Shown here piece after piece: positions 40,935 to 58,180 of a DNA stretch of 58,180 nt. Origin of the DNA: an uncultured Clostridia bacterium (GTDB lineage Bacteria > Bacillota > Clostridia > Oscillospirales > Acutalibacteraceae); assembly GCA_947305635.1 (NCBI GenBank), contig CAMZEG010000001.1:1-58180 (forward strand). The letters are read 5' to 3'. The number at the start of each line of letters is the position of its first letter. Positions within the stretch are counted from its first letter, which is position 1. The notes below the pieces were generated by a model, which searched no databases, had not been told where the DNA came from, and saw only the letters and a list, made by a program, of their open reading frames with translations. Both the position numbers and the translations under genes were made by a program.

Positions 40935-42317
40935 ATGGAAACAATGTATCAGGTACTGAAAATGATTCTCATAGCTGTGTTCTGCATCGAGTCGCTCTTT
41001 GCGCCGAAGATCGCGGGCGGAGATTATCCGCCGAGCGAACCGGTCGCGTCGGGAGACGAGACGAAATATGTGCAGATTACCGCGCCCGACGAGGGGTTTG
41101 ACGTCTTCCAGCCCGTCGGGTTTGAAGGCTACGCCGGTTATCGCTACGGACAGACGATGATCCTCAACACCGACGGCAGCCTTGACGTCTGGAGCGCCTC
41201 AAACGGCCCCGGAGATTACATTGACGTTGTGAACTACAAGCGCTACTCCGCCGACTTCAAGAAGAGCACAAAAGAAGTGACCGCTGTGACGCCGACGGCC
41301 GAAACCTATGACTACGATCCCGTGCCGTGCGCCTGCGACCCGGGCGTCATCAAGTTCGGCGGCTGGTACTATATCGCCTACTCGACGAATATGACCTGCG
41401 TCGCGCGCAGCAAAAACCCGGAAGGTCCGTTCTTTGAAAAATGGACGGGCGACGGCTGGGGCGTGAATCCCGCGCCGATCATTACCTATGACGGAACGCC
41501 GGGCTATTTCGGCGCGGCCGAGCCCTGCTTCGTCGTAATGGGCGACACGCTTTATATCTTCTACACCTGGTGGGACGAGCACGGTCCTGCGACGCGTGTT
41601 GCAACAGCGGATGCCACGGACGAAAACTGGCCGGCGACGATCGTGCATCACGGCGAATGCATTCCGCCGAAGGACGGCGGCGATTCCGCCGACGTGAAAT
41701 ATGTGGATGAATACGGCCGCTTTGTCGCTGTGTTCACCGAAAGACGGTTCACCGATAACAGCTACGTCGCCGTCTGGGAATCTTTCGACGGGCTGACCTT
41801 CCGCCGCAGCGGGTTCATCAAAGACAACACCTGCAAAAAGCTCCACAACTGCGGCATTTCGGGCCGCGCCGACGGCCATATCGGCAAGGGCGACCCGGTC
41901 TATCTTTCCTACGCCTACGCCGGCGCGGACACGACCGGCAGCTGGGCCAACTGGGGCACCAGAATGCACAAAGTCACGCTCTCGCTTGCAGACGCGCCCA
42001 TGGTGGACCTGTCGACGCTCACCCACTCGGACGTCGTCGTGACCCCGAGAAAAGTCAGCGTGGTGCCGGAGGTGACAGCCGTCAAGGCGGAGCAGCTGTC
42101 CTACACGATCAACAAGAGCAAAGTTATCATGATCATGGCGTTCGACACAGACGGCTTCTGCTTCCCGCTGTTGACCGACCTCAGGTTTGACGGCTACGAC
42201 AAGTCCGTCATCCGGATGGTCGGCACGTGCATCGTTCCCGTTGCGCCCGGCGACACACGCGTTTATGTGCACTGGCACGGGCTTTCGGACAGCTTCGTCG
42301 TGCATGTGACTGAATAA
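40935..42317 (+). CDS. Five-bladed beta-propeller glycosidase-like protein (GH43-like) with a C-terminal Ig-like domain, copy 1
   Basis: N-terminal anchor, then CDPGVIKFGGWYYIAYS, RSKNPEGPF and GAAEPCF motifs. GAGGAGG RBS present. Confidence 0.65.
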   Translation: METMYQVLKMILIAVFCIESLFAPKIAGGDYPPSEPVASGDETKYVQITAPDEGFDVFQPVGFEGYAGYRYGQTMILNTDGSLDVWSASNGPGDYIDVVNYKRYSADFKKSTKEVTAVTPTAETYDYDPVPCACDPGVIKFGGWYYIAYSTNMTCVARSKNPEGPFFEKWTGDGWGVNPAPIITYDGTPGYFGAAEPCFVVMGDTLYIFYTWWDEHGPATRVATADATDENWPATIVHHGECIPPKDGGDSADVKYVDEYGRFVAVFTERRFTDNSYVAVWESFDGLTFRRSGFIKDNTCKKLHNCGISGRADGHIGKGDPVYLSYAYAGADTTGSWANWGTRMHKVTLSLADAPMVDLSTLTHSDVVVTPRKVSVVPEVTAVKAEQLSYTINKSKVIMIMAFDTDGFCFPLLTDLRFDGYDKSVIRMVGTCIVPVAPGDTRVYVHWHGLSDSFVVHVTE

Positions 42318-42368: not shown

Positions 42369-43760
42369 ATGGAAACGATGTATCAGATCCTGAAAACCAT
42401 TCTTGCTGTGGTGTTTTGTATCGAATCGCTCTTTGGGGCGAAGATTGCGGGCGGAGACTTTTCGCCGAGCGATCCGGCCGGGCAGGGAGATGAGGAAAAG
42501 CACGTTCAAATCACCGCTGACGACGAAGGCTTCGACACATGGCAGCCCGTCAAAGACCGCGGCGGCTACCGCTACGGCCCGTCGATGATCCTCAATGCCG
42601 ACGGGAGCCTTGACATCTGGAGCGCCTCGAACGGGCCGGGCGATCTGATCGATCTTGTGAGCTACAAGCGTTACTCCTCCGACTTCAAAAAGAGCACAAA
42701 AGAGGTCATTGCCCTCAAGCCGACGGCTGAAAGCCACGACGCAATGTGGACGTGTGACCCGGGCGTCATAAAAATCGGGGACTACTACTACATCGGTTAC
42801 ACGACGACGCTCGATGCAAGAGGAACGGACAACGACGTCTGTATCGGGCGAAGCAAAAACCCGAACGGGCCCTTTACCGAAAAATGGACGGGAAGCTGCT
42901 GGGGCATTGAGCCGAAGCCGCTTGTCGAGTTCACAGGAAACCCGAACTGCTTCGGCGCGGGCGAACCTTCCTTTGTCCTGCTCGGTGAAACGCTCTATGT
43001 TTACTACTCTTGGTGCGACGAAAAAGGCGCCGCGACATGGGTCGCGACAGCCGACGCAACAGATGAAAACTGGCCGGCAACGCTTCAGTACCACGGCGAA
43101 TGCATCCCGCCGAAAGACGGAGGAGACTCTGCCGACGTCAAGTACCTTGATGCATACGGACGCTTCGTCGCCGTTTTCACCGAAAAACGTTTTTCCGATG
43201 AAAGCTATGTCGCCGTCTGGGAATCGTTTGACGGGCTTACCTTCCGTCCGAGCGGTTTCGTGAAAGCGAACACCTGCAAAAAGCTGCACAACTGCGGCAT
43301 TTCCGGGCGCGCGGACGGTCACATCGCCGCGGGCGACCCGGTCTATCTTTCCTATGCTTACGCCGGCGCGGACACCGCCGGAAGCTGGGGGAACTGGGCG
43401 ACAAGGCTGCATAAGGTCACCCTCTCGCTTTCAGACGCGCCGAAGCTCGACACGTCGACCGAAACCAACAATGACATTGTTGTCACCCACAGAGACGTGC
43501 GCCTTGTCCCCGAGATTGTCACGGTCAAGGCGGAAAAACAGTCCTACACGATCAGCAAGAGCGAGCATATCTGGGTCATGGCCTTTGATACGGATTATTT
43601 CGTCTTCCCGATCCTGACCGATATGCGCTTTGACGGTTATGATACGTCGGTGATCAGAATTGTCGGCACACGCATCATCCCGGTGGCACCCGGGGATACC
43701 CGTGTCTATGTCCATTGGCACGGTCTTTCGGGCGATTTTGTCGTGCATGTCACCGAATAA
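42369..43760 (+). CDS. GH43-like beta-propeller protein, tandem paralog (copy 2)
   Basis: About 70% identical by eye to copy 1 along the whole length. The RBS region is also duplicated. Confidence 0.65.
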   Translation: METMYQILKTILAVVFCIESLFGAKIAGGDFSPSDPAGQGDEEKHVQITADDEGFDTWQPVKDRGGYRYGPSMILNADGSLDIWSASNGPGDLIDLVSYKRYSSDFKKSTKEVIALKPTAESHDAMWTCDPGVIKIGDYYYIGYTTTLDARGTDNDVCIGRSKNPNGPFTEKWTGSCWGIEPKPLVEFTGNPNCFGAGEPSFVLLGETLYVYYSWCDEKGAATWVATADATDENWPATLQYHGECIPPKDGGDSADVKYLDAYGRFVAVFTEKRFSDESYVAVWESFDGLTFRPSGFVKANTCKKLHNCGISGRADGHIAAGDPVYLSYAYAGADTAGSWGNWATRLHKVTLSLSDAPKLDTSTETNNDIVVTHRDVRLVPEIVTVKAEKQSYTISKSEHIWVMAFDTDYFVFPILTDMRFDGYDTSVIRIVGTRIIPVAPGDTRVYVHWHGLSGDFVVHVTE

Positions 43761-44377: not shown

Positions 44378-44404
44378 CAGCCCGCCGGGGATCCCGGCGG
44401 GCTG
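44378..44404. terminator. Bidirectional terminator
   Basis: cagcccgccggg gatc ccggcgggctg, followed by a T-rich tract. It lies between convergent genes. Confidence 0.65.
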
Positions 44405-44415: not shown

Positions 44416-46851
44416 TTACTTCCTGCGCTTGTACAGCATCACACCGATCAGTGCGGCGAGCATGATCACAAAGCAGATGCCGAACAGGATCAGATTGCTG
44501 CGCAAGGTCTCATTCGACGACTGATTCGGCATACCGGAAAACGAGGGCCGTGCACCGCTTTCCTTTGTCGTGTCATCCGACGCCGGTTCGCTTGTCCGCG
44601 GCGCTTCCGGTGCGGCCTCGGTCGCGTCTTCCGTCGTCGGTTCAGCGGTGCTCGCTTCGGTCGTTGTCTCCGGGGCTGCGTCCGGCGGCGTCATGCCGCC
44701 CATGTCGGGCATATTGCCGGGGTCAAAGTCGCCCATGTCCGGCATATTGCCCGGGTCAAAGCTGCCCATGTCGGGCATGTTGCCCGGGTCGAAGCTGCCC
44801 ATATCCGGCATGTTGCCCGGATCGAAGCCTTCCGGCGGATCGCCGGGGCTGAAGCCGCCCGGAAACCCGGACGAACCGCCCGGCTGAGCCGGCTGCGTGG
44901 TTTCCGGCGCGGCCGTTGTCACTTCGGTCGTGGGTTCGGTCGTCGGCTCGATCGTCGGCTCCGTCGTTTCTTCGGTCGCTGCCTCAGTCGACGGTTCGGT
45001 CGTTGCCTCGTCGGTCGTTTCGGTTGAATTCCGGCTGTTCGACCGACCGGAGCGCCGGTTCGGGCTGCCGTTCGAAAAGCCGCCCATGTTGAACTTGCCC
45101 ATGGCGGAAATATCGATGTGCGACGCGTCGATGAGCGCGGAATCGTCTTCCCGCTGACCGGCGTCGGTGGACGGGATCGTCCCGTTCAGCTGGCCGTCGA
45201 TGCTCTGCGCGCGCAGATTGACCACTTCATACAGGATCTCGACCGCGTTCAGATACTCGTCATAGGTGTACATCGCGTTCGGGTCGGTCTCCACAAGCGT
45301 ATCGATCTGCGAACGGATCCGGTTGTAGGTCTCTTCGAACCGGCCGCTGTTCACGTATTCATCCACAAGCTGCTGCAGATAGGCGTGGTAGCGCGCGAGG
45401 TATTCGTCATCCTCGAGCAGCGCGTTGAAGAACTGCGTGCCGGAGAACGGGGTGTCGATCGCGTCGTTGACCACGGACGTGCCATCGCCTCCGCTGCCCA
45501 TGGACATACCGCCGAGCGAAAGGTTGTAGTCCCACGGGAACAGGTTGAGCTGACCGTCGTATTCATATAGATAATAGTTGTGCGCCATGGAGCCGGAAAG
45601 GCTGTCCATATTGACCGAGAACACATGCACGGCCATATATTTCAGCACGTTGTCCACGTCGAGATAGGTCTCGAGGTCGGTGCCCTCGCTGATATTCTTC
45701 AGCGCGGTGACCACACGGCGCCGGTCGGCATTGCTCATGCCGGTGATCGCGCCGTCCCAGATGGTGGAATAGCTGTCGAGTTCGTCGTCGGTATAGTTCA
45801 GGTTCGCACCGCCGCCGCGGGAGAAGCCGCCGCGGGAGGAGCCGGACCTGGATTCACTCGTTTTCGTGCTGTCGTCAGACGCCGCGGCCTCGGTGGGCGC
45901 GGTGGTTTCCGTTGCGGGTTTCGTGGTTGCGTCGCCGCTGCCCGGGATATTGTTCGGATCGAAGCTGCCCATGTCCGGCATATTATTCGGATCGAAACTG
46001 CCGCCAGACGACGGTCTGCCGCTTTGCGACGCGCCTGTTTCGGCGTCGGCTGCGGCGGTCGTTCCTGCGCTGTCGTCCGCCTGTGCGGTGGTTTCACCGG
46101 CGTCGGATCTGCTGCCTTTTGACGGCGGGGTCTTGCCCGCGAACTGGGAGAAATCGACGTTGCCCATATCCGGCATGGAGGACCTGGACGAGCTGCTGCT
46201 GTTGCCGCCGCCCATTTCCATGCTGTCCGGCTTATACAGTTCGCCGTCCTGGGTGCCGAAATTGCGCAGCTGGAAGCTTTCTTCCACCGCTTCGAGCGCA
46301 AGATACACGCCCCAGTATTCGCCGTTGACGGTGACCTTCGCGTAGTTATACAGCGAAGCGTCCGCGCCGATGAACTGATACATATCGTAGATCAGCGCTT
46401 CCTTCATGTTGGTGGCGTCCGCGTAGTTGTTGTTGAGAATCAGCTTGTCGAGCCCGTAGCAGGTCTGGCCGTCCACAAAGTGGTCGAATTCCAGCTTGAG
46501 ACTGTAGCGGTTGTTGTCCGCGTCCATGGCAATCGCCGAAAGACTGGTGTTTCCCTTGGGACGGATGGCGACGTTCTTCACGCTTTTTCCGTTGATGACG
46601 ACGTCGCAAACATAGTACTCCTCCGTCATCGCGCCGGAAAGCATCTTGTTCCATTCGTCTTCCTCCATTTCAATGTCGACGCTGATGATCTCATCCGTGT
46701 TGAACAGCCTGGATTCGTATTCCATTTTGACGCCCGTGCCGCCGAGCAGAACCGAAAGCTCATCGGCGAACGCCATTGCAAGAAAACACAGGACGACTGC
46801 GACGGCCATGACCACAACGATCCCTTTTGTAAAATGCTTATTTGTAACCAT
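44416..46851 (-). CDS. CotH kinase family protein, extracytoplasmic, with a C-terminal TM anchor and low-complexity linkers
   Basis: Signal/anchor at the N-terminus. The CotH-like core includes RPKGNTS, YSLKLEFD, NYADATNMKEALIYD and GELYKPD. The C-terminus is LILFGICFVIMLAALIGVMLYKRRK. GGAGG RBS present. Confidence 0.85.
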   Translation of the reverse strand: MVTNKHFTKGIVVVMAVAVVLCFLAMAFADELSVLLGGTGVKMEYESRLFNTDEIISVDIEMEEDEWNKMLSGAMTEEYYVCDVVINGKSVKNVAIRPKGNTSLSAIAMDADNNRYSLKLEFDHFVDGQTCYGLDKLILNNNYADATNMKEALIYDMYQFIGADASLYNYAKVTVNGEYWGVYLALEAVEESFQLRNFGTQDGELYKPDSMEMGGGNSSSSSRSSMPDMGNVDFSQFAGKTPPSKGSRSDAGETTAQADDSAGTTAAADAETGASQSGRPSSGGSFDPNNMPDMGSFDPNNIPGSGDATTKPATETTAPTEAAASDDSTKTSESRSGSSRGGFSRGGGANLNYTDDELDSYSTIWDGAITGMSNADRRRVVTALKNISEGTDLETYLDVDNVLKYMAVHVFSVNMDSLSGSMAHNYYLYEYDGQLNLFPWDYNLSLGGMSMGSGGDGTSVVNDAIDTPFSGTQFFNALLEDDEYLARYHAYLQQLVDEYVNSGRFEETYNRIRSQIDTLVETDPNAMYTYDEYLNAVEILYEVVNLRAQSIDGQLNGTIPSTDAGQREDDSALIDASHIDISAMGKFNMGGFSNGSPNRRSGRSNSRNSTETTDEATTEPSTEAATEETTEPTIEPTTEPTTEVTTAAPETTQPAQPGGSSGFPGGFSPGDPPEGFDPGNMPDMGSFDPGNMPDMGSFDPGNMPDMGDFDPGNMPDMGGMTPPDAAPETTTEASTAEPTTEDATEAAPEAPRTSEPASDDTTKESGARPSFSGMPNQSSNETLRSNLILFGICFVIMLAALIGVMLYKRRK
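44698..44829 (-). repeat. Four tandem 33-nt coding repeats (FDPGNMPDMGS units) inside the CotH gene
   Basis: Four consecutive near-identical 33-nt units. A related pair, FDPNNMPDMGSFDPNNIPG, is encoded at about 45938-46002. Confidence 0.8.
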
Positions 46852-46864
46852 GACCTCCCCTCCC

Positions 46865-47536
46865 TCAGGACAGATAATCGCCGTTGTAGGTGACGAGCGT
46901 TGCGCCCGAGACGCCGGCCACGTCGTTGACGCGGTTGACAAAGTTCGTTTCGTCGTCTTTGACGCGGATCTCCGCGGTCACTTCGATGCCGTTACCACTG
47001 ACCGTCTTGGACTTGACGACAAACTTGTCGACGGACTTTTCAATGAGGTTCATGGCGCTCTCTTCCGCCTTTTCGTCGGCGCAGTTCACAATCAGGATAT
47101 ACGGGGTTCTGCGGCCCTTGCGGTTGGCGAAGAGCAGCAGGATGACGCCGATGATGGCGGAACCGATCACGGCAAGCGGGATCATGCCGGCGCCGATGAC
47201 GATTCCGACGGCAAGCGCCCAGAACAGGAAGACGATCTCCATCGGTTCCTTGATGGCGGCGCGGAAACGGACGATGGACAACGCACCGACCATGCCGAGG
47301 GAAAGCACGACGTTGGACGTGACCGCCATGATGACGAGCGTCGTGACAAGCGAGAGCCCGACCAGAGACATGGCAAAGCCGGTCGAATACATGACGCCGC
47401 TGAAGGATTTCTTATAGATCAGGAAGATGAACAGCCCGATCACAAGGGCGAATGCCAGACCGACGAGCGTGTCGACGGCGGAGAATTCTTTTACGCTTTC
47501 GAGAAAGCTGGATTTGAAAATGTCGCTGAATGTCAT
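46865..47536 (-). CDS. DUF4956 domain-containing membrane protein
   Basis: 223 aa with 4-5 TM segments. Motif LSLGMVGALSIVRFRAAIKEP. GGAGG RBS present. Confidence 0.8.
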   Translation of the reverse strand: MTFSDIFKSSFLESVKEFSAVDTLVGLAFALVIGLFIFLIYKKSFSGVMYSTGFAMSLVGLSLVTTLVIMAVTSNVVLSLGMVGALSIVRFRAAIKEPMEIVFLFWALAVGIVIGAGMIPLAVIGSAIIGVILLLFANRKGRRTPYILIVNCADEKAEESAMNLIEKSVDKFVVKSKTVSGNGIEVTAEIRVKDDETNFVNRVNDVAGVSGATLVTYNGDYLS

Positions 47537-47572
47537 TTGAGTATACCTCCATTATATAATCTAATTGATTGT

Positions 47573-48265
47573 TTAACCGTATCTGCGGCAGGCGCCGTAT
47601 TTGGAAAACGCCTGCTGCCGTATGCCGTCGGTCTGGATGATGTCCCGGATCACGTCCGGCAGAAAGGCGTCGTATTTGACCTCCAAAATCATGTCGTGCG
47701 GCGTGTCCGTCGCCGTGATGTCGGAGATCTCTTTGGTGAGAAAGTCCCGGCTGTACAAGCTGGTGCGGATCTGCATGTCAAACGTCACGCGGATGTTTCC
47801 GGCTTTGTAGAGATAGGGCTCGCGCAGGTAGGAAACCACCACGCGGGGCCGAAGCCGCTGAAAGCGCATCTTCGCGTACAGTTCGTGCACCAGCTTTTCC
47901 GGGTGTCCCGGCATCCAGCTGAGATCGCCGCCCAGCAGCCGCCGGCATTCCTCCTCGGTCAGCGGCGCTTCGTACTTGAGACAAAGAGAATCGATCTTCA
48001 TCTTCTTTTCGAGCCGGATAAAGGACAGGTCGTCGTTGTAATACCGGATGCGGAACTTCTCCCGCTTCTGAACGCCGTCGATCTTTTCCCGAAGCGCCTT
48101 GTCGTCGCTGTTGTCGAAGTAGATGCTGCGAATCAGGTACCTGCCGTCGGGGAGCGTGTGCGGGTCGACGGTCATGACCGCCTGCAGCCGCCGGCGCATC
48201 ATGAGGTAGTCGGTGTACGGAATCGCGAACTTGAGCTCATGGCGGTAATGCTTTTCCTGAACCAT
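47573..48265 (-). CDS. VTC-domain (CYTH/triphosphate-tunnel-like) polyphosphate polymerase domain protein
   Basis: YRHELKF..., IRSIYFDN and KREKFRIRYY are typical of bacterial VTC domain proteins. AAAGGAGG RBS present. Confidence 0.85.
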   Translation of the reverse strand: MVQEKHYRHELKFAIPYTDYLMMRRRLQAVMTVDPHTLPDGRYLIRSIYFDNSDDKALREKIDGVQKREKFRIRYYNDDLSFIRLEKKMKIDSLCLKYEAPLTEEECRRLLGGDLSWMPGHPEKLVHELYAKMRFQRLRPRVVVSYLREPYLYKAGNIRVTFDMQIRTSLYSRDFLTKEISDITATDTPHDMILEVKYDAFLPDVIRDIIQTDGIRQQAFSKYGACRRYG

Positions 48266-48296
48266 AGCTGCGTCCTCCTTTCGTTTTGCTGAGGCT

Positions 48297-48328
48297 ATTC
48301 TATTCTTGTCACTTGAAATGAACTTGAA
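48297..48328 (-). promoter_or_regulatory. Predicted response-regulator box A plus -10 element for the VTC-DUF4956-CotH operon
   Basis: Minus strand reads TTCAAGT-TCAT-TTCAAGT (11-bp phased direct repeat), then 8 nt, then TAGAAT. Confidence 0.6.
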
Positions 48329-48339
48329 GCGATTTTAGA

Positions 48340-48380
48340 AAAATAAAAAAAGAATCGGGAGACCGTAAACAGTCTCCCAC
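48340..48380 (-). terminator. Terminator after the histidine kinase gene
   Basis: gggagac..gtctccc hairpin, followed on the minus strand by a T-run. Confidence 0.6.
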
Positions 48381-48385
48381 ATTCC

Positions 48386-49645
48386 TTACATTGTTACTCT
48401 TATTGTCATGGTTTTGCCGCTTGGGCAGCTCGCCGTGATCGTGCCGCCGTGGGTTTCAGCAACAGCTTTCGCGATTGCGAGGCCGACGCCCGTACCACCC
48501 GTCTGGGTCGCGCGGGAAGCGTCCGGCCGGTAGAACCGGTCGAACAGCCGGTCAACGTCAGGCGGCTCCTCGAGCTGGCAGGTGTTGAACACCTCGATAC
48601 GCACCTTGCCGCGCTTGCGGTGCAGCGAAAAGCGGATCTCGGCGTTCTCGTCCGAGTATTTGATCGCGTTATCCAGAAGCACGGAAAGCATCTGCTGTAC
48701 CGCGGCCTTTTCGCCGAGCATGGTCACGTCGTCCTGGATATCGACGGTCAGGTTCTTGCCGCTGCCCTTCGCCTGCGGCTGATAGACTTCGAGAATCTCC
48801 CACGCCGCGTTGCTGACGGAGAAAAGCTCCTTGTTCGGCAGCGGAAGCTCTTCGTCCAGCCGCGAGAGCGTCACAAGCTCGCTGACGAGCTTCGTCATGC
48901 GGCCGGTCTGGTTGCGGATGTTGTCCGTCCATTCGTCTTCGCCGTGCTCCAGCTCGATCACGTCCACGCTCGTGGAAATCGACGTCAGCGGCGTCTTGAG
49001 TTCGTGGCTCGCGTCGGTGATAAACTGCTTTTGCCGCTCGATGTTATGTGCGATCGGCTTGATCGCCTTGCCGCTCAAAAGCACGACCAGCACGAAGACC
49101 AGCAGCAGACTGACGCCGGAAACGGCGATCGTCAAGATCCGCAGCGACCGCATATATTGCAGATCGCGGCTCACGTTCAAAAAGAGGACGACCGTTTCGC
49201 CGTCTTTCTCCTCCACAACGTAGCGGTACTCCTTCAGATAGCCGCGGTCGCTCTTGCGCGAGAGCGCCTGCTGCGCGTACTGCACGGCGTCGGTTTCGTC
49301 TACGGACGCGATGAAGTCCGTGGAGGTCGAGGTGACTGTCCCTTCCGCGTCGAACCGCACGAAGAAGAAGCGCGTCATATAGTTCGCTTCCACGTCGGGG
49401 AAATCCGTGATCGGCGCCGGGGGTCTGCCGTCCCGTTCGCCTGGGCCGCCGTTGGTTTCATCACGCGGCGGGGGCGCCCGGTCGGCGCGCGACTCAAAGG
49501 CCATCACACTGGACAGCGTCTGGTCTGCGTTGTCTGTCACAACGTAATAGTCGACGACATTCACGAGCACCGCAATCAGCGCAACAACCGCAAAGAAGGC
49601 CGCCATCGCCGCGGCGATCAGACGCCAGCGCATCTTTTTCAGCAT
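48386..49645 (-). CDS. Sensor histidine kinase (two TM segments, extracytoplasmic loop, HisKA and HATPase domains)
   Basis: H-box FITDASHELKTPL, N-box LLDNAIKY, and G-boxes GGTGVGLAIAK. Confidence 0.9.
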   Translation of the reverse strand: MLKKMRWRLIAAAMAAFFAVVALIAVLVNVVDYYVVTDNADQTLSSVMAFESRADRAPPPRDETNGGPGERDGRPPAPITDFPDVEANYMTRFFFVRFDAEGTVTSTSTDFIASVDETDAVQYAQQALSRKSDRGYLKEYRYVVEEKDGETVVLFLNVSRDLQYMRSLRILTIAVSGVSLLLVFVLVVLLSGKAIKPIAHNIERQKQFITDASHELKTPLTSISTSVDVIELEHGEDEWTDNIRNQTGRMTKLVSELVTLSRLDEELPLPNKELFSVSNAAWEILEVYQPQAKGSGKNLTVDIQDDVTMLGEKAAVQQMLSVLLDNAIKYSDENAEIRFSLHRKRGKVRIEVFNTCQLEEPPDVDRLFDRFYRPDASRATQTGGTGVGLAIAKAVAETHGGTITASCPSGKTMTIRVTM

Positions 49646-50316
49646 CCGACCACCTCCAGCGCGTACCCCGCGCCGCGGATCGTCTTGATCTCCACGTCGG
49701 CGTTGAGATTGCGCATCTTCCGGCGGACAAAGCCGATGTGCGTCCAGACGACGTTGATGTCGGATTCCGTTTCGTAGCCCCAGATCTTATCCATCAGGTG
49801 CTCCGTTGAAAAGACATAGCCCGGATGCTGCATGAACAGCTCCATCAGCTGGTATTCCTTGTTGGTCAGGCTGACGCTCTCGTCGCCGACCCGCATCTCG
49901 TAGCGGTTGCCGTCGAGTTCCAGATTGCCGACCTTTTTCAGCGATTCCGCATAGCTTTCGCTGCGTCGGGCAAGCGCCTTGATCCGCGCGATCAGCTCCT
50001 GCGTCGCGAACGGTTTCGGCAGATAGTCGTCGGCGCCGGCGTTCAGCCCCGCGACACGGTCTTCGACCTCCGCCTTCGCGGTCAAAAGCAGCACAGGCGT
50101 CGGAATCCGGTTTTGCCGGATCAGGGAAAGCACCTTCAGCCCGCTCATGCCGGGCATCATGATGTCGAGTACGATCACTTCATAGGAACCTGCCTGAATG
50201 TAGTCCCAGGCGTCGATCCCGTTATGTACGATGTCGACGGAATACTTTGCTTTTTCAAGCAGGAGCTTGATCGCCTTTGCCGTCGAGACTTCGTCTTCTG
50301 CGATTAATATACGCAT
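49639..50316 (-). CDS. OmpR/PhoB-family response regulator
   Basis: MRILIAEDE.., receiver Asp in VLDIMMPG, and a winged-helix C-terminus ending ..IRGAGYALE. AAGGAGG RBS present. It overlaps the HK start by 7 nt. Confidence 0.92.
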   Translation of the reverse strand: MRILIAEDEVSTAKAIKLLLEKAKYSVDIVHNGIDAWDYIQAGSYEVIVLDIMMPGMSGLKVLSLIRQNRIPTPVLLLTAKAEVEDRVAGLNAGADDYLPKPFATQELIARIKALARRSESYAESLKKVGNLELDGNRYEMRVGDESVSLTNKEYQLMELFMQHPGYVFSTEHLMDKIWGYETESDINVVWTHIGFVRRKMRNLNADVEIKTIRGAGYALEVVGC

Positions 50317-50338
50317 GGTATCCCCTCCTTTTGATTGT

Positions 50339-50370
50339 ATTATAAAAGTGAAACCTGAATTGAACCTGAA
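50339..50370 (-). promoter_or_regulatory. Predicted response-regulator box B plus -10 element (autoregulation of RR-HK)
   Basis: Minus strand reads TTCAGGT-TCAA-TTCAGGT, then 8 nt, then TATAAT. Confidence 0.6.
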
Positions 50371-50461
50371 AAAGGTAAAACAATTTTCAAAGGGAAACGG
50401 CACCGGAAGCCGAAGCCGCCGATGCCGTTCGAAAAAAGGAGAGGAGAGAGGTAAATCTGAG

Positions 50462-52021
50462 TTATCCGATGCCGAACAGGTTGCGGAAGAACGCGATGAT
50501 GCGCTGGAAGAAGCTCCGGATACCGTTCAGAAAGTTCGAGCCGAAGCCGCCGCCCTGACCGGGCTGCTGCCCGCCGGGACCTCCGGGGCCGCCCTGATTG
50601 CCGGAAGATGTGGTAGCGGTGGAGGAACGGGCGTTGGATTCGCCGTTATAGACGCTGTAGAGCGTGCCGCTTTGCACGGCGGGCGACGTGAACACAACGT
50701 AGCTCGCGTTGCGCGGCGCGGCGGATTTTGCCGTATAGACCACGTTGTTGCTGTCGTCTCTGATTGAGATCTTGTTGCCTGCGGTCACGATATTCGAGCT
50801 GACGCCGCCGATCATCCCGCCGAACATACCGCCGCCGGAACCGCCGAACGTGACATAGGTGCCGATATAGCTTTGCTGCATCATGGCGTGGCCGACCGCG
50901 AGCACCGTCGCGCCGCTGAAGGTGCAGCCGTATTCGGTATCGATCGGGTCGCCGTCGCCCTGCGCGGGTGCGTAGACCTCGAGCGTGCCGCCGGAAAGCG
51001 TGGCGCTGCCGTTGGAATCGATGCCGTCGCCGTTCGTCACGTTGATATAGACGTAGCCGCCGTATTGGTTATAGGTAAACTGTTCGCTGCGTTCGGAAAT
51101 GTCTCCGTTCGCCGCGTTGATGCCGTCGTCCGTGGCGTTCACGGTGACGTTGCCGGAATAGACGTTGACGGTGGAAGCTTCGATGCCCTCCGCCGCTTTG
51201 GCGACATTGATCGTCGGACCTGCCGTGCCCTGTTCGCCGATATTGAGCACAAAGTCGCTCTTGATGCCGTCGTCGATCGCGTTGACGGTGATGTTGCCCG
51301 AAAGGATGTTGAGTGTCGCTTCCGCCTTGATCGCGTCGGTATCGGTCACATGGTTCGTCACGGTGATGGTCGCTTCCTTGATCGTCAGGACGGACGTTTC
51401 GTCAAAGGTCGGCACGGTGCCGTCGCCCTGGTCGGCACTGCCCTTGATGCCGGTCTTGCCGTAGGCGTTCACAACCAGCGTACCCGTGCCGCAGATCGTC
51501 ACGTTGGAGCCCGCCTTGGTCTTGATGACCGCGTTTTCGGCGGAGCCGCCGTGCGCATCGTCGTCGGTGTTGGCCGGGTACAGCTCGTCGTTGTTGTACT
51601 TGCTGTCGGTCAGGGTGTTGGTCGTACCTGCAGCCACGACGATTGTGACGCCGGTGCTCTTGTTGCAAAGCAGCGGAGCGGTGTTTTCCGTCACGGTCTC
51701 GCTCGAAGACGTCAGCGTCAGACCGTTCAGGACAAGTACCACGTCGGTCGTCCCCTTCTTGACCTTGATCGAGCCGTTGGTGCAACTGCCGGAGACAACG
51801 TAGGTGCCCGCGGCATTGATTGTCAGCGCGGTGCCGGTGATCTTGTAGCCGGTGTAGTCGCCCGCCGTCACGGCGATGCCGCTGTCGGAGAAGACGAAGC
51901 GCGTTGCGCCCGTCAGGTCATAGTCGTCCGCCGCGAAAGACAGCAGTGCGGTCGCCGAGAGCGCGAGCAGCAGCGTGAGCAGGACGGCTATCGCTTTTTG
52001 GAGTGTGCGTGTTTGTTTCAT
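50462..52021 (-). CDS. Cthe_2159-family carbohydrate-binding beta-helix protein, secreted
   Basis: Signal peptide, then ITGTALTINAAGTYVVSGS.., repeated ..ITVNA.DDGI.. turns, a Gly/Gln-rich linker and the C-terminal tail FFQRIIAFFRNLFGIG. AGGAGG RBS present. Confidence 0.75.
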   Translation of the reverse strand: MKQTRTLQKAIAVLLTLLLALSATALLSFAADDYDLTGATRFVFSDSGIAVTAGDYTGYKITGTALTINAAGTYVVSGSCTNGSIKVKKGTTDVVLVLNGLTLTSSSETVTENTAPLLCNKSTGVTIVVAAGTTNTLTDSKYNNDELYPANTDDDAHGGSAENAVIKTKAGSNVTICGTGTLVVNAYGKTGIKGSADQGDGTVPTFDETSVLTIKEATITVTNHVTDTDAIKAEATLNILSGNITVNAIDDGIKSDFVLNIGEQGTAGPTINVAKAAEGIEASTVNVYSGNVTVNATDDGINAANGDISERSEQFTYNQYGGYVYINVTNGDGIDSNGSATLSGGTLEVYAPAQGDGDPIDTEYGCTFSGATVLAVGHAMMQQSYIGTYVTFGGSGGGMFGGMIGGVSSNIVTAGNKISIRDDSNNVVYTAKSAAPRNASYVVFTSPAVQSGTLYSVYNGESNARSSTATTSSGNQGGPGGPGGQQPGQGGGFGSNFLNGIRSFFQRIIAFFRNLFGIG

Positions 52022-52072
52022 GGGTATTCCTCCTAAAAGATACAGGATCGGGTTTTCGTTCTTTCTGTCTCT

Positions 52073-52104
52073 ATTTTGCAATCGGAAGCTGAAATGAAGT
52101 TGAA
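52073..52104 (-). promoter_or_regulatory. Predicted response-regulator box C plus -10-like element for the Cthe_2159-family gene
   Basis: Minus strand reads TTCAACT-TCAT-TTCAGCT, then 8 nt, then CAAAAT. Confidence 0.5.
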
Positions 52105-52188
52105 AAAAGAAAAAATATTTTCAGTTTTTGTCATCCACTGATCTGTTGCGCCGCAATGCCTCGACCATGCGGCCCTTTTATAAATAAC

Positions 52189-52224
52189 ACAAACGTCCAT
52201 GAGACTACTCTCATGGACGTTTGT
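52189..52224. terminator. Perfect 16-bp-stem hairpin (insulating terminator or element-end structure)
   Basis: acaaacgtccatgaga ctac tctcatggacgtttgt. On the minus strand a T-rich GTTATTTAT follows. Confidence 0.4.
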
Positions 52225-52360
52225 CTGGTGCGATTGTTCTTAAGGGATTTTCAAAACTATACAATTTGGCTTTCGACAGCGAACATACACTTACCCTCAA
52301 ATCCAACCATGAAAAACTTAAATTTCCCAAAACAAATGGTACAACACGGAGGTTAGTGCT

Positions 52361-52711
52361 ATGAATATGAATAATACTCACTGCGATAGTTTTAACAACC
52401 CAAACTTGGTTTGTTCTGAACAAGAACACCCACCCCTCGGCAAGTACGGCAGGATGCGCCGAACATACCTCAAAGAAAACTTCCCCGCAAAATACAACTG
52501 GATGGTCTGGCAGGACGCCCTTTGGCCGCATCTGCATCAAATCGACGCCAAAGCCGACGAACTGTTCAGAACGATTGTTGGTCAGATGGCGAAAGCCCGT
52601 GGCGTCAACGAACAGCTCAAGGCGGACGATCAATGGCGCTGGATTCAGGAGATGGGAAACATCCGCAACGTGGCGGAAGAAATCGTGCTGCGGGATGTGG
52701 TGTGCGCATGA
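52361..52711 (+). CDS. tnpV: TnpV-family protein (accessory protein of Tn4451-type mobile elements), orphan
   Basis: 116 aa. LGKYGRMRRTYLKENFP...QMAKARGVNEQLKADDQWRWIQEMGNIRNVAEEIVL matches my recollection of TnpV. The local region is lower in GC. GGAGG RBS present. Confidence 0.65.
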   Translation: MNMNNTHCDSFNNPNLVCSEQEHPPLGKYGRMRRTYLKENFPAKYNWMVWQDALWPHLHQIDAKADELFRTIVGQMAKARGVNEQLKADDQWRWIQEMGNIRNVAEEIVLRDVVCA

Positions 52712-52775
52712 ATAACCAGCCATCTGCTGATTGCAAGTACTATTATCATAATTATTAAAAGCACTTCATCATACC

Positions 52776-52813
52776 AAAACGCAATCGTCTGGCAACCGGC
52801 GGTTGCGTTTTTT
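52776..52813 (+). terminator. Terminator after tnpV
   Basis: aaaacgcaa...ttgcgtttt stem followed by a T-run. Confidence 0.55.
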
Positions 52814-52844
52814 ACTGTGTACTTTCTTATGTATTTATGAAAGA

Positions 52845-52889
52845 TCGACAAACAAAAGGTGTCTCCCCCCGACCGAAGCCGGGGGGAGA
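52845..52889 (-). terminator. Terminator after the 1160-aa surface protein gene
   Basis: 10-bp stem tctccccccg/cggggggaga. On the minus strand CACCTTTTGTTTG follows. Confidence 0.6.
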
Positions 52890-52922
52890 AACAAGAGGAG
52901 ATTGAGATGAGGAACGATCGAG

Positions 52923-55900
52923 TTAGAAGAGGTTGCGGAAGAAGTTCAGAATCCGGTCAAAGAAGCCGCGGATGGTTCTGATGATGCGCTGGAAGAAGTT
53001 TTCGCTCTTCTTGCCGATCACACTGCCGGTTGCGATCTTTGCGCCGCAGCCCTTGCAGTAGGTGTCGCCGGTGTAGCCTTCTTCTTCCGTTGTGGCTTCC
53101 TTCGCGCCGCGGACTTCCGTGCCGCCCTGATGGTTGTTCGCGTTGATCGGCGTTGCGCTGCCGGTTGCGATCTTTTCGCCGCAGCCTTTGCAGTAGGTGT
53201 CGCCGCTGTAGCCCTGTGCATGGCAGTTCGCCGTCACAGCGCCGCGGACTTCCGTGCCGCCGGAGTGGGTCGTGCTCTTCGGCGTTGCGCTGCCGTCTGC
53301 AATTTTGGTGTTGCAGCCGAGGCACCACGTGTCGCCGGTGTAGCCGCCGTGGGCGCAGGTCGCGTCCACTTTGCCGCGCACTTCCGTGCCGCCCGTATGG
53401 TTCGTCGGATCCTTTTCGCCTTCCGCGGCTTTTTCAATCACAAGGCCGCAGTCTTCGCAGACTTTGCCTTCGCTCTTGGCGGGCGTAGTACAGCTGCCCT
53501 CAACTGCCGGAGAAACGGCCACGTTCGCATGTGCGCAGGCAAGCGTCTTCAGAATGTCGGATTCCTTCAGCAGTCTGCAGGCGACCGGAATGAGATCTGC
53601 CTTGCGGTTATTGATGCTGACCATGTTGCGCGCCGCGATGCCCTGATCGCTTTCGGCGCCGGTAAAGGTCTGCTGAACGGTTTCAGACGCCGGATAAAGC
53701 TCTGTCTGAACCGTATCGGGGAAGAAGGCGTCCACAATGTAATCGGAAGCATTGATCAGCGCCTTGGTCACGGGCACGCCGCCCGCAATGGCGTCTTCCT
53801 TCACTTCAAAGTAGGCAAGCAAGTCGCCGAAATCACCGTCGGCTGCCTTTGTGAAGAGCGCTTCGTTCATATCAACAAGACCGGTGTAATTCGAGAACAT
53901 GGAGTTCATCGGCAGAACCGCATCCGCGATCTTGCTCACCTTCAGGAGCGCACTGTCAGAAGCGGCGGGAGCAACCGGATAAAGGATCAGCCCGTCGGTC
54001 AGATCCAGGAAGCGATCCGCCAGAGCGCCGAGGGTGGCTTCCCAGTTCGCGCCCTTGCTGACGGCCAGCTTAAAGTTCGCGTCGCCGATCTGCAGATCGA
54101 AGTCTTCGTTCAGCGCTGCGATCACTTTGTTGATTGCCGCGTTGATCTTCGGCACCGCAAAGTCTGCGGCTTCATAGAGGATGTCAACGACCTTGTCCAT
54201 CACAGCATCCTGTGCGCTGATCGTGCCGGCGTCAACCGCCGCAGCGTCAATGGCTGTATATGTGTAATCCCAGCCGTCGATGTCAACCTTGGCAAGCAGC
54301 TTGGAGAGGATCATATCCACCGCGGTGGCGATGATGGCGTCCAGCGTGTCAAGGTCTTCCACACGCATATGGAAGTCATAGAAGATGCTGTCCTCGTCGT
54401 CTTCGGCAAGCAGGTCGCAGGCGATGCGGATGCCGCAGTCCAGCGCATTTTCAACGGAAGAGAAGTCCATATCATAGACCATGCCGGCGTTGAAGCCGTG
54501 GGCGGAAGCGAACACATTGCTGATGCCGGCAGTTTCGGCAAGGGCAACGAAGGTGTCGCGGTCGATGTACTGCTTCATCGTATCGAACAGGCCGGAGACC
54601 TTGTTGCAGATCTTCTGAAGGTTGCTGTAAAGGTTGGAGTTGTCGCCATCCACAAGGTCAAGATCAGCCATGCCGGCGTCGGAAGCGATCATGTCCACAA
54701 GACCGTAAAGGATGTGGTTGGCCTGGCCGACAACGCCCTTGTATGCGTCATAGTTTGCCGAAACGTCAAGCAGTGTGTCGTCATATTCCGCTTCGGTGTC
54801 GATATAGCCGACCAGCTTCTTGACCTGTTCCAGTTCTTCGATCACGCCGTCCAGACCGTTCATCACGATTGTCACAAACGCGGGGTCTTCCAGCATGCTG
54901 GGATTGCCGAGGGCGGTCTTGATGGTGTCAATGACCATCTGGTCAGCATCAATGCCAAAGGACTTCGCAAGATTGATCATGGAGGCGGCGGAGCCCCAGT
55001 CCACCACGGTTGCATCCGGATTCAGCAGATCAACGTCTGCAGTCGCAGCAATCGGCGCCGTAATGTTCACCTTTGCGGTGGCGCTTTCCACTTTTGCCTG
55101 AACAGCAAAGGAATCGGTATCCTGATACGCCTTGTAGGAGAAGGTCGCGTCTGCATCGGAAATACTGAACGCGACAGAGACGTTTCCTGCGCTGAAGTTT
55201 GCGCCTTTTCCGTTGATTCTTGTAACCAGTTCGTTCTTGACTGCGTTTTCAACATCGTCCAGCTTGATGTCAAGATCAAGCAGCTGCGTGTCGCCCATCG
55301 CCGCTTTGGCAATGAAGTGCTTACCCCACGCTTCGCCGACGCCGCCCACAAGCGCCTGATCTTCGGCGGACATTTCGGAATTCTTTTTCACTTCGACGCC
55401 GATCTCTTCGTCAGCATACTGATCCAGCATATCCTTTGCCTGATCGTTTGCATAGATGGTCGGCATATAGTCTTCGGCGTTCGGACTCGACGGATGATAA
55501 GTGGCATAAACCGGATTGTTTTCATGCCCGATCGTCAGCGCCGGAGGATCGATGTTCACACCTGCCGTGATAACCTGGACCATGCCCTGCAATGCTTTCA
55601 GGAAACCTTCCAGCAGATCGTCAAACTGGCCTTTATAATCGTTTTGCAGCAGTCTGACATAGTCCTTCACCAGCGTGTAGACATCGGTGGTTTTCAGGTT
55701 GAACGCATCGTAAGCGGTTTTGGATGCTTCCGTTTTGAGGAGATCCTTGAGCACCGGTGCGAGCGCAGCCTTGATGCCGTTGTTCAGCGTGTCGTCAAAG
55801 ATTTCGCCGTCAGGGATCTCATAGCCCATTTCGCGGGCGATCTCGCTGACAAATTTTTCCTGAATGTTGTTCCCGATCAGATAATCGTCATAGAAATCGC

Positions 55901-56402
55901 GGATGGGATCGCCTTCTGCAAAGTTTGCTTCGATGTATTCGCCCACTTTGCCGTAATCAAACACCTCGTCGTCCCAGCGGAAGACCTTGCCGAAGAGATC
56001 GGCGTTGGCAGCCATGAATTCGATCATGCCGTTGACAAAGCCGGTGTTGCCGGCGTCCGCCCGCTTCACGATGAGATCGGTCGAGCCGAGATTGGCGAAG
56101 TCGCCCTCCAGGTCTGCCAGATGATCCTTGTATTCCACAAGGCTGTCAACTCCGGTGATCTCCGGAATCTCGATGCCCGCCGCTTCGTTCAGACCGGCAT
56201 ACTGTTCAAATTCATCGAAATCGGGCGCGACGGCTGCGATCTTGCGGTCGAGCCAGTCGAGCACGACGCCAAGCACGTCGTCATCGGTGAGCGCGCTGTA
56301 ATCGCCGCCCACCACGGCTGCGCTGTCATATGCCGATGCCATGGGGACCAGACAGGTCAGAACCATGAGGATCGACAACAACACTGCGGATAGTTTTTTC
56401 AT
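52923..56402 (-). CDS. Large secreted protein (1160 aa): unknown helical region, four Cys-rich repeats, and a C-terminal FFQRII...FFRNLF tail
   Basis: An AGGAGG RBS lies 8 nt before ATG 56400-56402. Signal peptide MKKLSAVLLSILMVLTCLVPMASA. The gene has its own promoter and terminator. Confidence 0.8.
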   Translation of the reverse strand: MKKLSAVLLSILMVLTCLVPMASAYDSAAVVGGDYSALTDDDVLGVVLDWLDRKIAAVAPDFDEFEQYAGLNEAAGIEIPEITGVDSLVEYKDHLADLEGDFANLGSTDLIVKRADAGNTGFVNGMIEFMAANADLFGKVFRWDDEVFDYGKVGEYIEANFAEGDPIRDFYDDYLIGNNIQEKFVSEIAREMGYEIPDGEIFDDTLNNGIKAALAPVLKDLLKTEASKTAYDAFNLKTTDVYTLVKDYVRLLQNDYKGQFDDLLEGFLKALQGMVQVITAGVNIDPPALTIGHENNPVYATYHPSSPNAEDYMPTIYANDQAKDMLDQYADEEIGVEVKKNSEMSAEDQALVGGVGEAWGKHFIAKAAMGDTQLLDLDIKLDDVENAVKNELVTRINGKGANFSAGNVSVAFSISDADATFSYKAYQDTDSFAVQAKVESATAKVNITAPIAATADVDLLNPDATVVDWGSAASMINLAKSFGIDADQMVIDTIKTALGNPSMLEDPAFVTIVMNGLDGVIEELEQVKKLVGYIDTEAEYDDTLLDVSANYDAYKGVVGQANHILYGLVDMIASDAGMADLDLVDGDNSNLYSNLQKICNKVSGLFDTMKQYIDRDTFVALAETAGISNVFASAHGFNAGMVYDMDFSSVENALDCGIRIACDLLAEDDEDSIFYDFHMRVEDLDTLDAIIATAVDMILSKLLAKVDIDGWDYTYTAIDAAAVDAGTISAQDAVMDKVVDILYEAADFAVPKINAAINKVIAALNEDFDLQIGDANFKLAVSKGANWEATLGALADRFLDLTDGLILYPVAPAASDSALLKVSKIADAVLPMNSMFSNYTGLVDMNEALFTKAADGDFGDLLAYFEVKEDAIAGGVPVTKALINASDYIVDAFFPDTVQTELYPASETVQQTFTGAESDQGIAARNMVSINNRKADLIPVACRLLKESDILKTLACAHANVAVSPAVEGSCTTPAKSEGKVCEDCGLVIEKAAEGEKDPTNHTGGTEVRGKVDATCAHGGYTGDTWCLGCNTKIADGSATPKSTTHSGGTEVRGAVTANCHAQGYSGDTYCKGCGEKIATGSATPINANNHQGGTEVRGAKEATTEEEGYTGDTYCKGCGAKIATGSVIGKKSENFFQRIIRTIRGFFDRILNFFRNLF
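53005..53420 (-). repeat. Three tandem 135-nt (45-aa) coding repeats: H.GGTEVRG....C....GY(T/S)GDT(Y/W)C.GC..KIA.GSATP
   Basis: ctgccggttgcgatc recurs at 53023 and 53158, and a diverged copy lies near 53293. A fourth degenerate unit (CAHANVAV..SCTT..KVCEDCG) lies upstream. Confidence 0.8.
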
Positions 56403-56492
56403 GAGTGTTACCTCCTTCATAAATCTGCTGGTTTTCGGTACAGTGACCGTTCTGTGGCCGGGAAGCCCGGGACTCCCCATCAGCTCGATTCC

Positions 56493-56521
56493 ATTTTATT
56501 CCGTTTGAAAGCAGCTTGCAA
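56493..56521 (-). promoter_or_regulatory. Candidate promoter of the large surface protein gene
   Basis: Minus strand reads TTGCAA, 17 nt, TAAAAT, about 90 nt upstream of the start. Confidence 0.4.
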
Positions 56522-56614
56522 GCAACAAAAAAAGCGGATTTGTCAATCAACAAACCCGTTTTGTCACAGTTGAAAGAATCTTGCGCAGGGTGTGAAAAAA
56601 CCGTGAACACGCCG

Positions 56615-57757: not shown

Positions 57758-58024
57758 CACCTTCCTGCGCGAATCTATTCGTTTTATTATATCACAAAAC
57801 ACCGGAGAGGGAAAGCGCGCAGATGCAACACTTTCTCGATTTTTGTCAATCCGGATCGTTTCCGCAGGCAGGTATAAGTTCGGCTGCGCGAATATGCAAG
57901 CAGATTGCCTGTTTACGCATTGGAACGGCGAGGCAGTGCATCCTGCCTGTCCCCGTAAATACCTGCAGCAGCTCCTTTAGCAAGAAAACCTGCTATTCTA
58001 AGCACAGCACAGTTTCGATACGTT

Positions 58025-58180
58025 TCACCCCTGCGTCTGCCGGAACTGCGTCGGCGTCAGGCCGTCCAGGACAAGCACGACGTCGGTCGTCCCCTTCTTG
58101 ACCTTGATCGAGCCGTTGGCGCAGGTGCCGGAGACAACGTAGGTGCCCGCGGCATTGATTGTCAGCGCGGTGCCGGTGAT
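58025..58180 (-). CDS. Partial CDS: truncated paralog of the Cthe_2159-family gene (5' part lies outside the window)
   Basis: Encodes ..ITGTALTINAAGTYVVSGTCANGSIKVKKGTTDVVLVLDGLTPTQFRQTQG-stop. Nucleotides 58048-58180 are about 90% identical by eye to 51710-51842. Confidence 0.6.
   Translation of the reverse strand: MTGTALTINAAGTYVVSGTCANGSIKVKKGTTDVVLVLDGLTPTQFRQTQG

Follow-up and report, generated by a model that had tools for sequence, protein, structure and literature searches.

We found that a three-gene operon encoding a Vtc4-like triphosphate-tunnel (VTC) protein, a DUF4956 membrane protein and a CotH-family kinase-fold protein is co-conserved across many Clostridia with a two-component system (TCS) and an operator-like box, as judged from gene order and upstream sequences. 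The locus described here lies on the minus strand of a 58,180-nt stretch of DNA from an uncultured Clostridia bacterium (assembly GCA_947305635.1, contig CAMZEG010000001.1, positions 1 to 58,180), hereafter the window, and includes a gene for a secreted Cthe_2159-family beta-helix protein. The module itself is known and uncharacterised; new here are the occurrence of the trio outside Pel loci, its own TCS with a shared operator-like box, and a third gene that is interchangeably of CotH or Cthe_2159 type. We put at roughly 0.4 the probability that the region is a small envelope regulon under a dedicated OmpR-type TCS, in which the operon would act as a trans-membrane phosphate machine.

Genes were identified by Pfam profile search, and the real frames in the window stand out by their high GC content at third codon positions (GC3). 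Six minus-strand genes were confirmed in the order that a sequence-only reading of this DNA had given: Cthe_2159, an OmpR-type response regulator (RR), a sensor histidine kinase (HK), VTC, DUF4956 and CotH. The genes and associated signals are listed below.

52087-52104, minus strand: operator-like direct repeat TTCAACT-TCAT-TTCAGCT, 65 nt 5' of the Cthe_2159 ATG, with a -10-like CAAAAT 8 nt 3'
50462-52021, minus strand: Cthe_2159-family beta-helix protein, secreted, 519 aa (PF14262, E=9e-32)
50353-50370, minus strand: operator-like direct repeat TTCAGGT-TCAA-TTCAGGT, 36 nt 5' of the RR ATG, with TATAAT 8 nt 3'
49639-50316, minus strand: OmpR-family response regulator, 225 aa (Response_reg and Trans_reg_C)
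48386-49645, minus strand: sensor histidine kinase, 419 aa (HisKA and HATPase_c; two transmembrane helices)
48356-48379, minus strand: intrinsic-terminator-like hairpin and T-run, between HK and the VTC promoter
48311-48328, minus strand: operator-like direct repeat TTCAAGT-TCAT-TTCAAGT, 45 nt 5' of the VTC ATG, with TAGAAT 8 nt 3'
47573-48265, minus strand: Vtc4-like triphosphate-tunnel (VTC) protein, soluble, 230 aa, putative polyphosphate polymerase (PF09359, E=2.7e-38)
46865-47536, minus strand: DUF4956 multi-pass membrane protein, 223 aa (PF16316, E=2e-10)
44416-46851, minus strand: CotH-family kinase-fold protein, predicted to be surface-tethered, 811 aa (PF08757, E=1.9e-59)
44378-44404, no strand assigned: GC-rich hairpin with a 12-bp stem, between the CotH stop and a convergent HD-domain gene

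The six genes form three predicted transcription units (Cthe_2159; RR-HK; VTC-DUF4956-CotH) rather than one, since a terminator-like hairpin (48356-48379) separates HK from VTC and a second hairpin (44378-44404) closes the operon; the latter is likely a bidirectional terminator that shields the operon from the convergent HD-domain gene. Within the units the genes are tightly packed. The RR stop and HK start overlap by 7 nt, the 36 nt between the VTC stop and the DUF4956 start contain the DUF4956 ribosome-binding site (RBS), and CotH begins at an ATG (46851) preceded by a strong RBS, GGGAGGGGAGG, 13 nt past the DUF4956 stop. A TTG at 46941 was rejected as the CotH start, and reading of the start regions placed the RR and Cthe_2159 starts at 50316 and 52021. 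The interval delimited in the sequence-only reading ended at 52104, which is the end of the operator-like repeat 5' of Cthe_2159.

To examine the phylogenetic extent of the module, we searched the window VTC protein against one genome per GTDB species and obtained 80 loci, mostly from rumen and gut Lachnospiraceae, with some from Spirochaetes, Atopobiaceae and Erysipelotrichaceae. VTC, DUF4956 and CotH were contiguous on one strand in 73 of the 75 loci with enough downstream DNA. A second scan, with a VTC profile against metagenome contigs, gave 80 more distant loci (VTC 48-72% identical), in 61 of 62 of which VTC and DUF4956 were adjacent, so the grouping of the three genes in the sequence-only reading is well supported by their co-conservation. 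An orthologous RR-HK pair lay directly 5' of the trio in 45 of 70 species loci (same strand in 42, divergent in 3). When open reading frames (ORFs) were clustered, every other gene was limited to at most 13 of the 80 species loci, and no recurring Pel or polysaccharide-synthase genes appeared among them. Likewise, pel, glycosyltransferase, polysaccharide-synthase and DUF4832 genes were absent among the scanned ORFs of the window. The published remark that this synteny is absent outside Pel loci fails for these genomes.

The three predicted transcription units share a box, TTCAnnT-N4-TTCAnnT, that lies 8 nt before the -10 hexamer of each and stands where a -35 element would be. The window contains exactly three copies of the pattern, all on the minus strand and one before each unit; the expected count is 0.09, and three or more occurrences were seen in 0 of 100 shuffles. 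The Cthe_2159 box is the weaker site, having C for G at position 6 of both half-sites, and fits a stricter pattern derived from the two strong sites with two mismatches (whole-window expectation 0.02). Across the species loci, 61 of 78 have a box no more than 200 nt from the VTC start, most often 42-46 nt from the ATG, and in 45 of these 61 the box-to--10 spacing is 8 nt. The position of the box ahead of RR in the window suggests that the RR regulates its own gene. A comparable box about 35-40 nt upstream of RR was found in 14 of 49 related loci, compared with 1.25% of random 200-nt windows. In 1.34 Mb of related loci there were 66 near-perfect boxes, 49 ahead of VTC and 8 ahead of RR; several of the remainder lie 5' of genes for HtrA-like proteases or a lipoprotein. 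Box-bearing HtrA-like genes (trypsin and PDZ domains) were found in three relatives (locus L087, 6045-7845; L045, 110-1460; L047, 6529-7879), and in L087, from the closest other species, such a gene, preceded by a box, stands where Cthe_2159 lies in the window. These genes suggest a regulon of the envelope-stress type. Two loci have a perfect box about 200 nt 5' of a gene for a 405-411-aa lipoprotein, 3' of CotH (L047, 15094-15111; L048, 15075-15092), and this gene may be a further, lineage-specific member of the regulon.

The description of the module as controlled by a TCS, which had rested on gene order, thus gains direct support from the shared candidate operator. Because the box replaces the -35 element, its position suggests activation by the phosphorylated RR. 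RR orthologs (58-85% identical) adjoin VTC in other species, and the HK has two transmembrane (TM) helices flanking an extracytoplasmic loop of about 140 aa without a Pfam domain. In design the pair resembles streptococcal CiaRH, whose regulator binds TTTAAG-N5-TTTAAG about 10 nt 5' of the -10, with a critical G6 and htrA as a main target (PMC3091779). Common to both are hexamer direct repeats 5 nt apart with an invariant G6 at an equal position relative to the -10, a box ahead of the system's own operon and, in relatives of the window, HtrA-like genes with a box; the same geometry is also that of pho boxes. The half-site here, however, is mostly TTCAGG or TTCAAG instead of TTTAAG, the main target is the VTC operon, and the recognition helix (VVWTHIGFVRRKM, compared with VVEVYVSKVRKKL in CiaR) has only 5 of 13 residues equal. 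The best NCBIfam matches of the RR were RppA and PhoB, all under their cut-offs, with no CiaR model among the matches. We therefore rejected naming the system CiaRH or PhoBR, the operator architecture alone being comparable, and do not claim orthology.

The VTC protein scores 132 bits against the Pfam VTC model (PF09359, cut-off 23) over residues 8-226 of its 230 aa, and hydropathy analysis revealed no TM segment. Nine tunnel residues could be mapped onto Vtc4: K12, R72, R74, K88, K97, Y146, R148, R159 and E195 correspond to Vtc4 K200, R264, R266, K281, K294, Y359, R361, R373 and E426. All nine are invariant or at least 90% conserved among 42 bacterial homologs (36-63% identity), and the profile built from these 42 proteins matches yeast Vtc4 with E=8e-9. 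Three of the equivalent positions are those changed in the inactive Vtc4 mutant R264A/R266A/E426N (PMC9911596). S221-K222 probably corresponds to Vtc4 S457-K458, in a segment outside the alignment. An AlphaFold 2 (AF2) model of the protein (predicted local distance difference test score, pLDDT, 75; predicted TM-score, pTM, 0.71) was compared with the PDB using Foldseek: the best 13 matches were all triphosphate tunnel metalloenzyme (TTM) domains of VTC-complex subunits (Vtc4, Vtc2 and Vtc3; 3g3r at E=3e-10, TMq 0.68), and other TTM enzymes trailed at about E=1e-5, roughly 1e5-fold worse. With its tunnel residues intact and Vtc4 as its closest structural match, the protein, for which the sequence-only reading had proposed a VTC tunnel domain, looks catalytically competent as a Vtc4-like polymerase, judging by residues and model.

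Like the eukaryotic VTC complex, in which Vtc4 works with a Vtc1/2/3 channel (PMC9911596), the bacterial pair combines the tunnel fold and mappable polymerase residues with a genetic tie between a soluble catalytic domain and a membrane protein. Unlike that complex, it lacks recognisable regulatory and channel domains: Pfam assigns the VTC protein the VTC domain alone, with no SPX domain and no Vtc1-type (DUF202) TM channel, and the membrane protein that it is paired with is encoded separately, is unrelated to Vtc1 and is MgtC-like. The putative product would also be destined for the cell exterior instead of a vacuole. Longer VTC homologs (365-505 aa) were considered as Rosetta-stone fusions and rejected, as their N-terminal extensions contain neither DUF4956 nor another domain; in four of them (P0185, P0216, P0225 and P0255) the extension spans 140-280 aa and is disordered, strongly basic and rich in Arg, Pro and Glu, with no recognisable domain.

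The DUF4956 protein (41 bits against its Pfam model, cut-off 30.6) has 4-5 TM segments followed by a C-terminal domain, the AF2 secondary structure of which, beta-alpha-beta-beta-alpha-beta, is ACT-like. The whole model, built from 30 homologs at least 81% identical, reaches a pLDDT of only 59 and was left out of the fold search, and a profile search of the PDB for a solved relative returned nothing below E=0.3. The family carries the invariant motif TSNVVLSLGMVGALSIVRFRxAIKEP, and residues 73-98 contain the invariant basic loop SIVRFRxAIKEP; all basic clusters of the protein are predicted to face the cytoplasm. With the highest median identity to the window proteins across the species loci (79%, compared with 76% for RR, 69% for VTC, 58% for CotH and 56% for HK), DUF4956 is, by this measure, the most constrained part of the module. 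In arrangement it resembles Salmonella MgtC, in which several membrane passes precede a small ACT-like domain in the cytoplasm, and a weak MgtC/SapB match was found (E=1e-4). The score against NCBIfam PRK09977, however, is 22 bits where the cut-off is 214, so that membership in MgtC/SapB fails, and DUF4956 is a separate Pfam family that is always paired with VTC.

The CotH protein (202 bits against PF08757, cut-off 23.8) matches its family in two stretches separated by a Ser/Gly/Asp-rich low-complexity insert of about 170 aa (residues about 216-385). The protein is bracketed, as the sequence-only reading had described, by a hydrophobic N-terminal anchor at residues 11-29 and a TM helix near the C-terminus (787-805) with YKRRK behind it, and by the positive-inside rule the core is predicted to lie outside the cell. 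Among the orthologs, 73 of 75 have an N-terminal signal peptide or anchor and 42 of 75 a C-terminal TM helix with a basic tail. A Pro/Thr/Glu-rich stalk (residues about 591-780) bears FDPGNMPDMG repeats, present six times across insert and stalk. In the alignment to Bacillus cereus CotH (5jd9) the motifs ..NMD..HNY.. and ..PWDY.. are kept, and D416 and D441 (in the 811-aa numbering) correspond to D228 and D251, the catalytic residues of B. subtilis CotH (PMC7821199). Both catalytic motifs occur in every full-length ortholog, and with both Asp residues kept the protein looks competent as a kinase fold. Compared with the B. subtilis CotH-CotB/CotG module, the kinase fold with equivalents of D228 and D251 is common to both (PMC7821199), and the Ser/Arg-rich low-complexity segments lie within CotH itself here: the insert contains SSSSSRSS and SESRSGSSRGGFSRGGG, reminiscent of the Ser-rich substrates of Bacillus CotH. 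The protein described here differs in having no link to sporulation, in being predicted to be exported and membrane-tethered, and in sharing its operon with VTC and DUF4956; cotB and cotG are absent, and the spore-coat context of CotH is thus missing.

In the distant loci, the gene right after DUF4956 was of CotH type in 39 and of Cthe_2159 type in 14. Five of the Cthe_2159-type third genes were confirmed by Pfam (E=3e-58 to 3e-72, 197-243 bits), as was one CotH control. The ectodomains of the two types are unrelated, and the frame that carries them is common to both. Their first 36 residues typically read MS(T/A)HKxIDxICI, a hydrophobic stretch and FxNGxxLGI, with a mean identity of 42% and up to 64% among members of the MSxHK type across both third-gene types; both have Met/Asp/Gly/Pro-rich repeats (FDPGNMPDMG in the window CotH) and usually a C-terminal TM helix and basic tail, and the C-terminal stalk of one Cthe_2159-type third protein matches the C-terminus of the window CotH. 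Because unrelated ectodomains thus sit on a common N-terminal anchor, repeats and TM frame in one slot, CotH and Cthe_2159 are, on sequence grounds, interchangeable third components. Cthe_2159 and CotH are the two bacterial families reported among the lineage-specific domains of anaerobic gut fungi.

The Cthe_2159 protein of the window (111 bits against PF14262, cut-off 25.8) is not of the third-gene type, since its N-terminus resembles an ordinary signal peptide (..LSFA|AD). Farther along the chain come an internal GGSGGGMFGGMIGG insert, a linker rich in Gly, Gln and Pro and, at the end, the hydrophobic tail FFQRIIAFFRNLFGIG. Neither tblastn nor phmmer found a Cthe_2159 gene next to the module in the 80 species loci, and conserved adjacency in close relatives was rejected, the arrangement being kept solely in the same-species contig L088. 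The association of the module with a beta-helix protein, as drawn in the sequence-only reading, therefore survives in one form and not in another: Cthe_2159 fills the CotH slot in 14 distant loci, whereas its position 5' of the RR is not conserved outside the species. Since the family occupies the third-gene slot elsewhere, it is improbable that the co-regulated gene of the window lies beside the module by chance. The tail FFQRIIAFFRNLFGIG (50462-50520, minus) recurs as a common hydrophobic or amphipathic ending, ..FFQRIIRTIRGFFDRILNFFRNLF, in an 1185-aa secreted protein encoded nearby (52923-53000, minus), and among the window ORFs of 80 aa or more no other has a comparable tail, which may serve both proteins as a signal for sorting or anchoring.

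The trio has been described before (Whitfield 2020; PMC2879425). In Gram-positive pel operons, cotH, a polyP (polyphosphate)-polymerase gene, DUF4956 and DUF4832 are listed as contiguous accessory genes, with the trio next to pelDEA_DA_FG and a DUF4832 glycosidase in streptococci, clostridia and bifidobacteria (Whitfield 2020). In Streptococcus intermedius, deletion of the DUF4956 and CotH genes cut aggregation in sputum medium by more than 50% and altered Pel levels, and deletion of the VTC gene had no clear phenotype (PMC12345266); these mild phenotypes make outdated the earlier statement that no function had been shown for the trio. The Pel accessory genes (S. intermedius SIR_1591-1594) resemble those described here in encoding a cytoplasmic VTC-like protein, an MgtC-like TM protein with an ACT domain and a secreted CotH with catalytic residues. 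The window and the 73 of 75 species loci differ in having neither pel genes nor the DUF4832 glycosidase; what is attached here is a dedicated TCS with a conserved operator-like box, and CotH ends in a TM anchor, unlike the Pel-locus CotH with its FN3 domain. A further relative is Clostridium perfringens NELoc-2, in which each VTC gene has beside it one that encodes a 'tubulin/FtsZ-like' membrane protein of about 225 aa, a possible DUF4956 member, and a CotH gene follows. There, unlike in the window, the pair is duplicated around a resolvase and linked to a glycosyltransferase family 2 (GT2) 'chitin synthase' and a sigma factor instead of a TCS.

Taken as a trans-membrane phosphate machine, the module would work as follows. 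The phosphorylated RR would bind the three boxes and activate all three promoters; the cytoplasmic Vtc4-like tunnel enzyme would polymerise phosphate from ATP; and the MgtC-like DUF4956, as the membrane partner of VTC, would move the chain or phosphoryl groups across the membrane. Outside, an ectodomain protein held by the conserved N-terminal anchor, and usually by the C-terminal TM helix too, would take the product. A CotH kinase fold would transfer phosphate to proteins or glycans of the surface, where ATP is lacking, a Cthe_2159 beta-helix in the same slot would bind the polyanion, and the co-regulated Cthe_2159 paralog of the window would be a plausible co-worker or target. We are led to a complex of this kind by the synteny of the trio, the tight spacers (36 nt and 13 nt) and the modular third partner; export of polyP to the ectodomain and its use by CotH, as also proposed in the sequence-only reading, are purely inferred. 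A fully specified version is improbable: VTC and DUF4956 as a polyP synthase-translocase that extrudes polyP to a docked ectodomain, with CotH using polyP as donor or polyP being joined to surface proteins or glycans, Cthe_2159 displaying the polyanion, and a CiaRH-like sensor switching on the system.

Several points weigh against the phosphate-machine model. Our literature search found no report of a biochemical function for the bacterial VTC/DUF4956 pair or the module, nor a biochemical activity for any of its bacterial members, and we know of no CotH-fold kinase that uses polyP. Pfam finds neither an SPX domain nor a Vtc1-type channel domain in the VTC and DUF4956 proteins, and a channel role for DUF4956 is conjecture, the family being unrelated to the Vtc1/DUF202 channel, without a solved homolog and poorly modelled (pLDDT 59). 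The Cthe_2159 box departs from the best-conserved G in both half-sites. In S. intermedius, the contrast between the VTC deletion and those of DUF4956 and CotH argues that CotH does not depend strictly on VTC (PMC12345266), and the authors of that study suggested a cytoplasmic location for polyP (bioRxiv 10.1101/2024.04.20.589940).

The alternative that we take most seriously, unlikely though we consider it, follows those authors in keeping polyP cytoplasmic, as a stress or phosphate store. DUF4956 would then act in the manner of MgtC, regulating the kinase or the homeostasis of phosphate or ATP, with its ACT domain sensing a metabolite, and CotH and Cthe_2159 would act independently, as adhesins or on extracellular ATP, sharing the operon through one envelope-stress response. 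The weak MgtC/SapB match, together with one source that names a homolog YhiD, favours such a role, as do the missing channel and SPX domains, the lack of a clear phenotype on VTC deletion and the co-regulation of HtrA-like genes in relatives, which fits a generic envelope-stress output. What this account leaves hard to explain is the near-absolute synteny of VTC, DUF4956 and an ectodomain gene in about 130 informative loci, where the genes lie tens of nt apart, which points to a physical complex, and the retention of an N-terminal cytoplasmic/TM segment by the third gene despite the swap of ectodomains, which suggests docking to a membrane partner. It is distinctly improbable that the module serves to modify an exopolymer, as it may in streptococcal Pel loci, with CotH as a glycan kinase, Cthe_2159 as a PL9-like binder or lyase, and VTC and DUF4956 supplying a phosphoryl donor or a crosslinking polyanion. 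The siting of the trio beside pel genes, the changes in Pel level and aggregation on deletion of the DUF4956 and CotH genes, the published binding of cellulose and polygalacturonate by Cthe_2159 proteins and the GT2 synthase of NELoc-2 all agree with it; yet neither the scanned window ORFs nor the recurring genes of the 80 species loci include a polysaccharide synthase or pel, and the sole CotH with a biochemical characterisation phosphorylates Ser in proteins (PMC7821199). Least probable of the readings considered is that the VTC protein is another triphosphate-tunnel enzyme (a tripolyphosphatase, nucleoside triphosphatase or cyclase) that, with the ACT-domain membrane protein, forms a signalling device steering the ectodomain from inside. 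The TTM superfamily is functionally diverse, with CyaB-like cyclases, thiamine triphosphatase (ThTPase) and ygiF among the weaker structural matches, and the bacterial proteins have Glu (E10) at a Vtc4 Thr position, nearer to the classic ExExK motif. Pfam, however, assigns VTC and not CYTH, the structural matches to VTC subunits lead those to other TTMs by the margin given above, and the mappable polymerase-critical residues of Vtc4 are all invariant or nearly so.

By bringing together a Vtc4-like enzyme, a membrane protein and an exported kinase fold, the module could address two puzzles: by what route polyP reaches the bacterial surface, and how a kinase could act outside a cell that exports no ATP. 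Abundant among the Clostridia of rumen and gut, it is under strong purifying selection, and modules of this type also occur in the necrotic-enteritis loci of C. perfringens and in streptococcal Pel biofilm loci. A Pel-independent trio with its own sensor, a defined operator-like box and swappable CotH and Cthe_2159 ectodomains makes the module amenable to direct experiment.

The surroundings of the module in the window are varied. Just 5' of the Cthe_2159 operator-like repeat the GC content falls from about 0.59 to about 0.53 (52100-58180), and this stretch, probably an acquired island abutting the module, contains a long hairpin (52189-52224), a TnpV gene (52361-52711, plus), the gene for the 1185-aa protein (52923-56480, minus) and a TetR-like gene. 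The 1185-aa protein has a signal peptide and 3-4 Cys-rich repeats near its C-terminus (..GGTEVRG..C..GYTGDTYCKGCG.KIA.GS..), with no Pfam domain and no PADLOC match; an anti-phage defence reading was rejected, PADLOC having returned no matches. On the other side of the module, tandem paralogs (40935-42317 and 42369-43760, plus) encode proteins of 460 and 463 aa with hydrophobic N-termini starting METMYQ(V/I)LK; the 460-aa protein, the only one of the pair scanned, had no Pfam match. A gene for a small HEAT-repeat protein (39097-39735, plus) lies 4.7 kb from CotH, and NELoc-2 also has a HEAT-repeat protein near CotH, a parallel that is probably coincidence. Farther away, positions 20000-35000 and 3000-10000 are rich in glycoside hydrolases (GH31, GH141-like, alpha-L-rhamnosidase, GH76, GH95-like and DUF4838), which fits a plant-glycan-degrading gut or rumen Clostridium.

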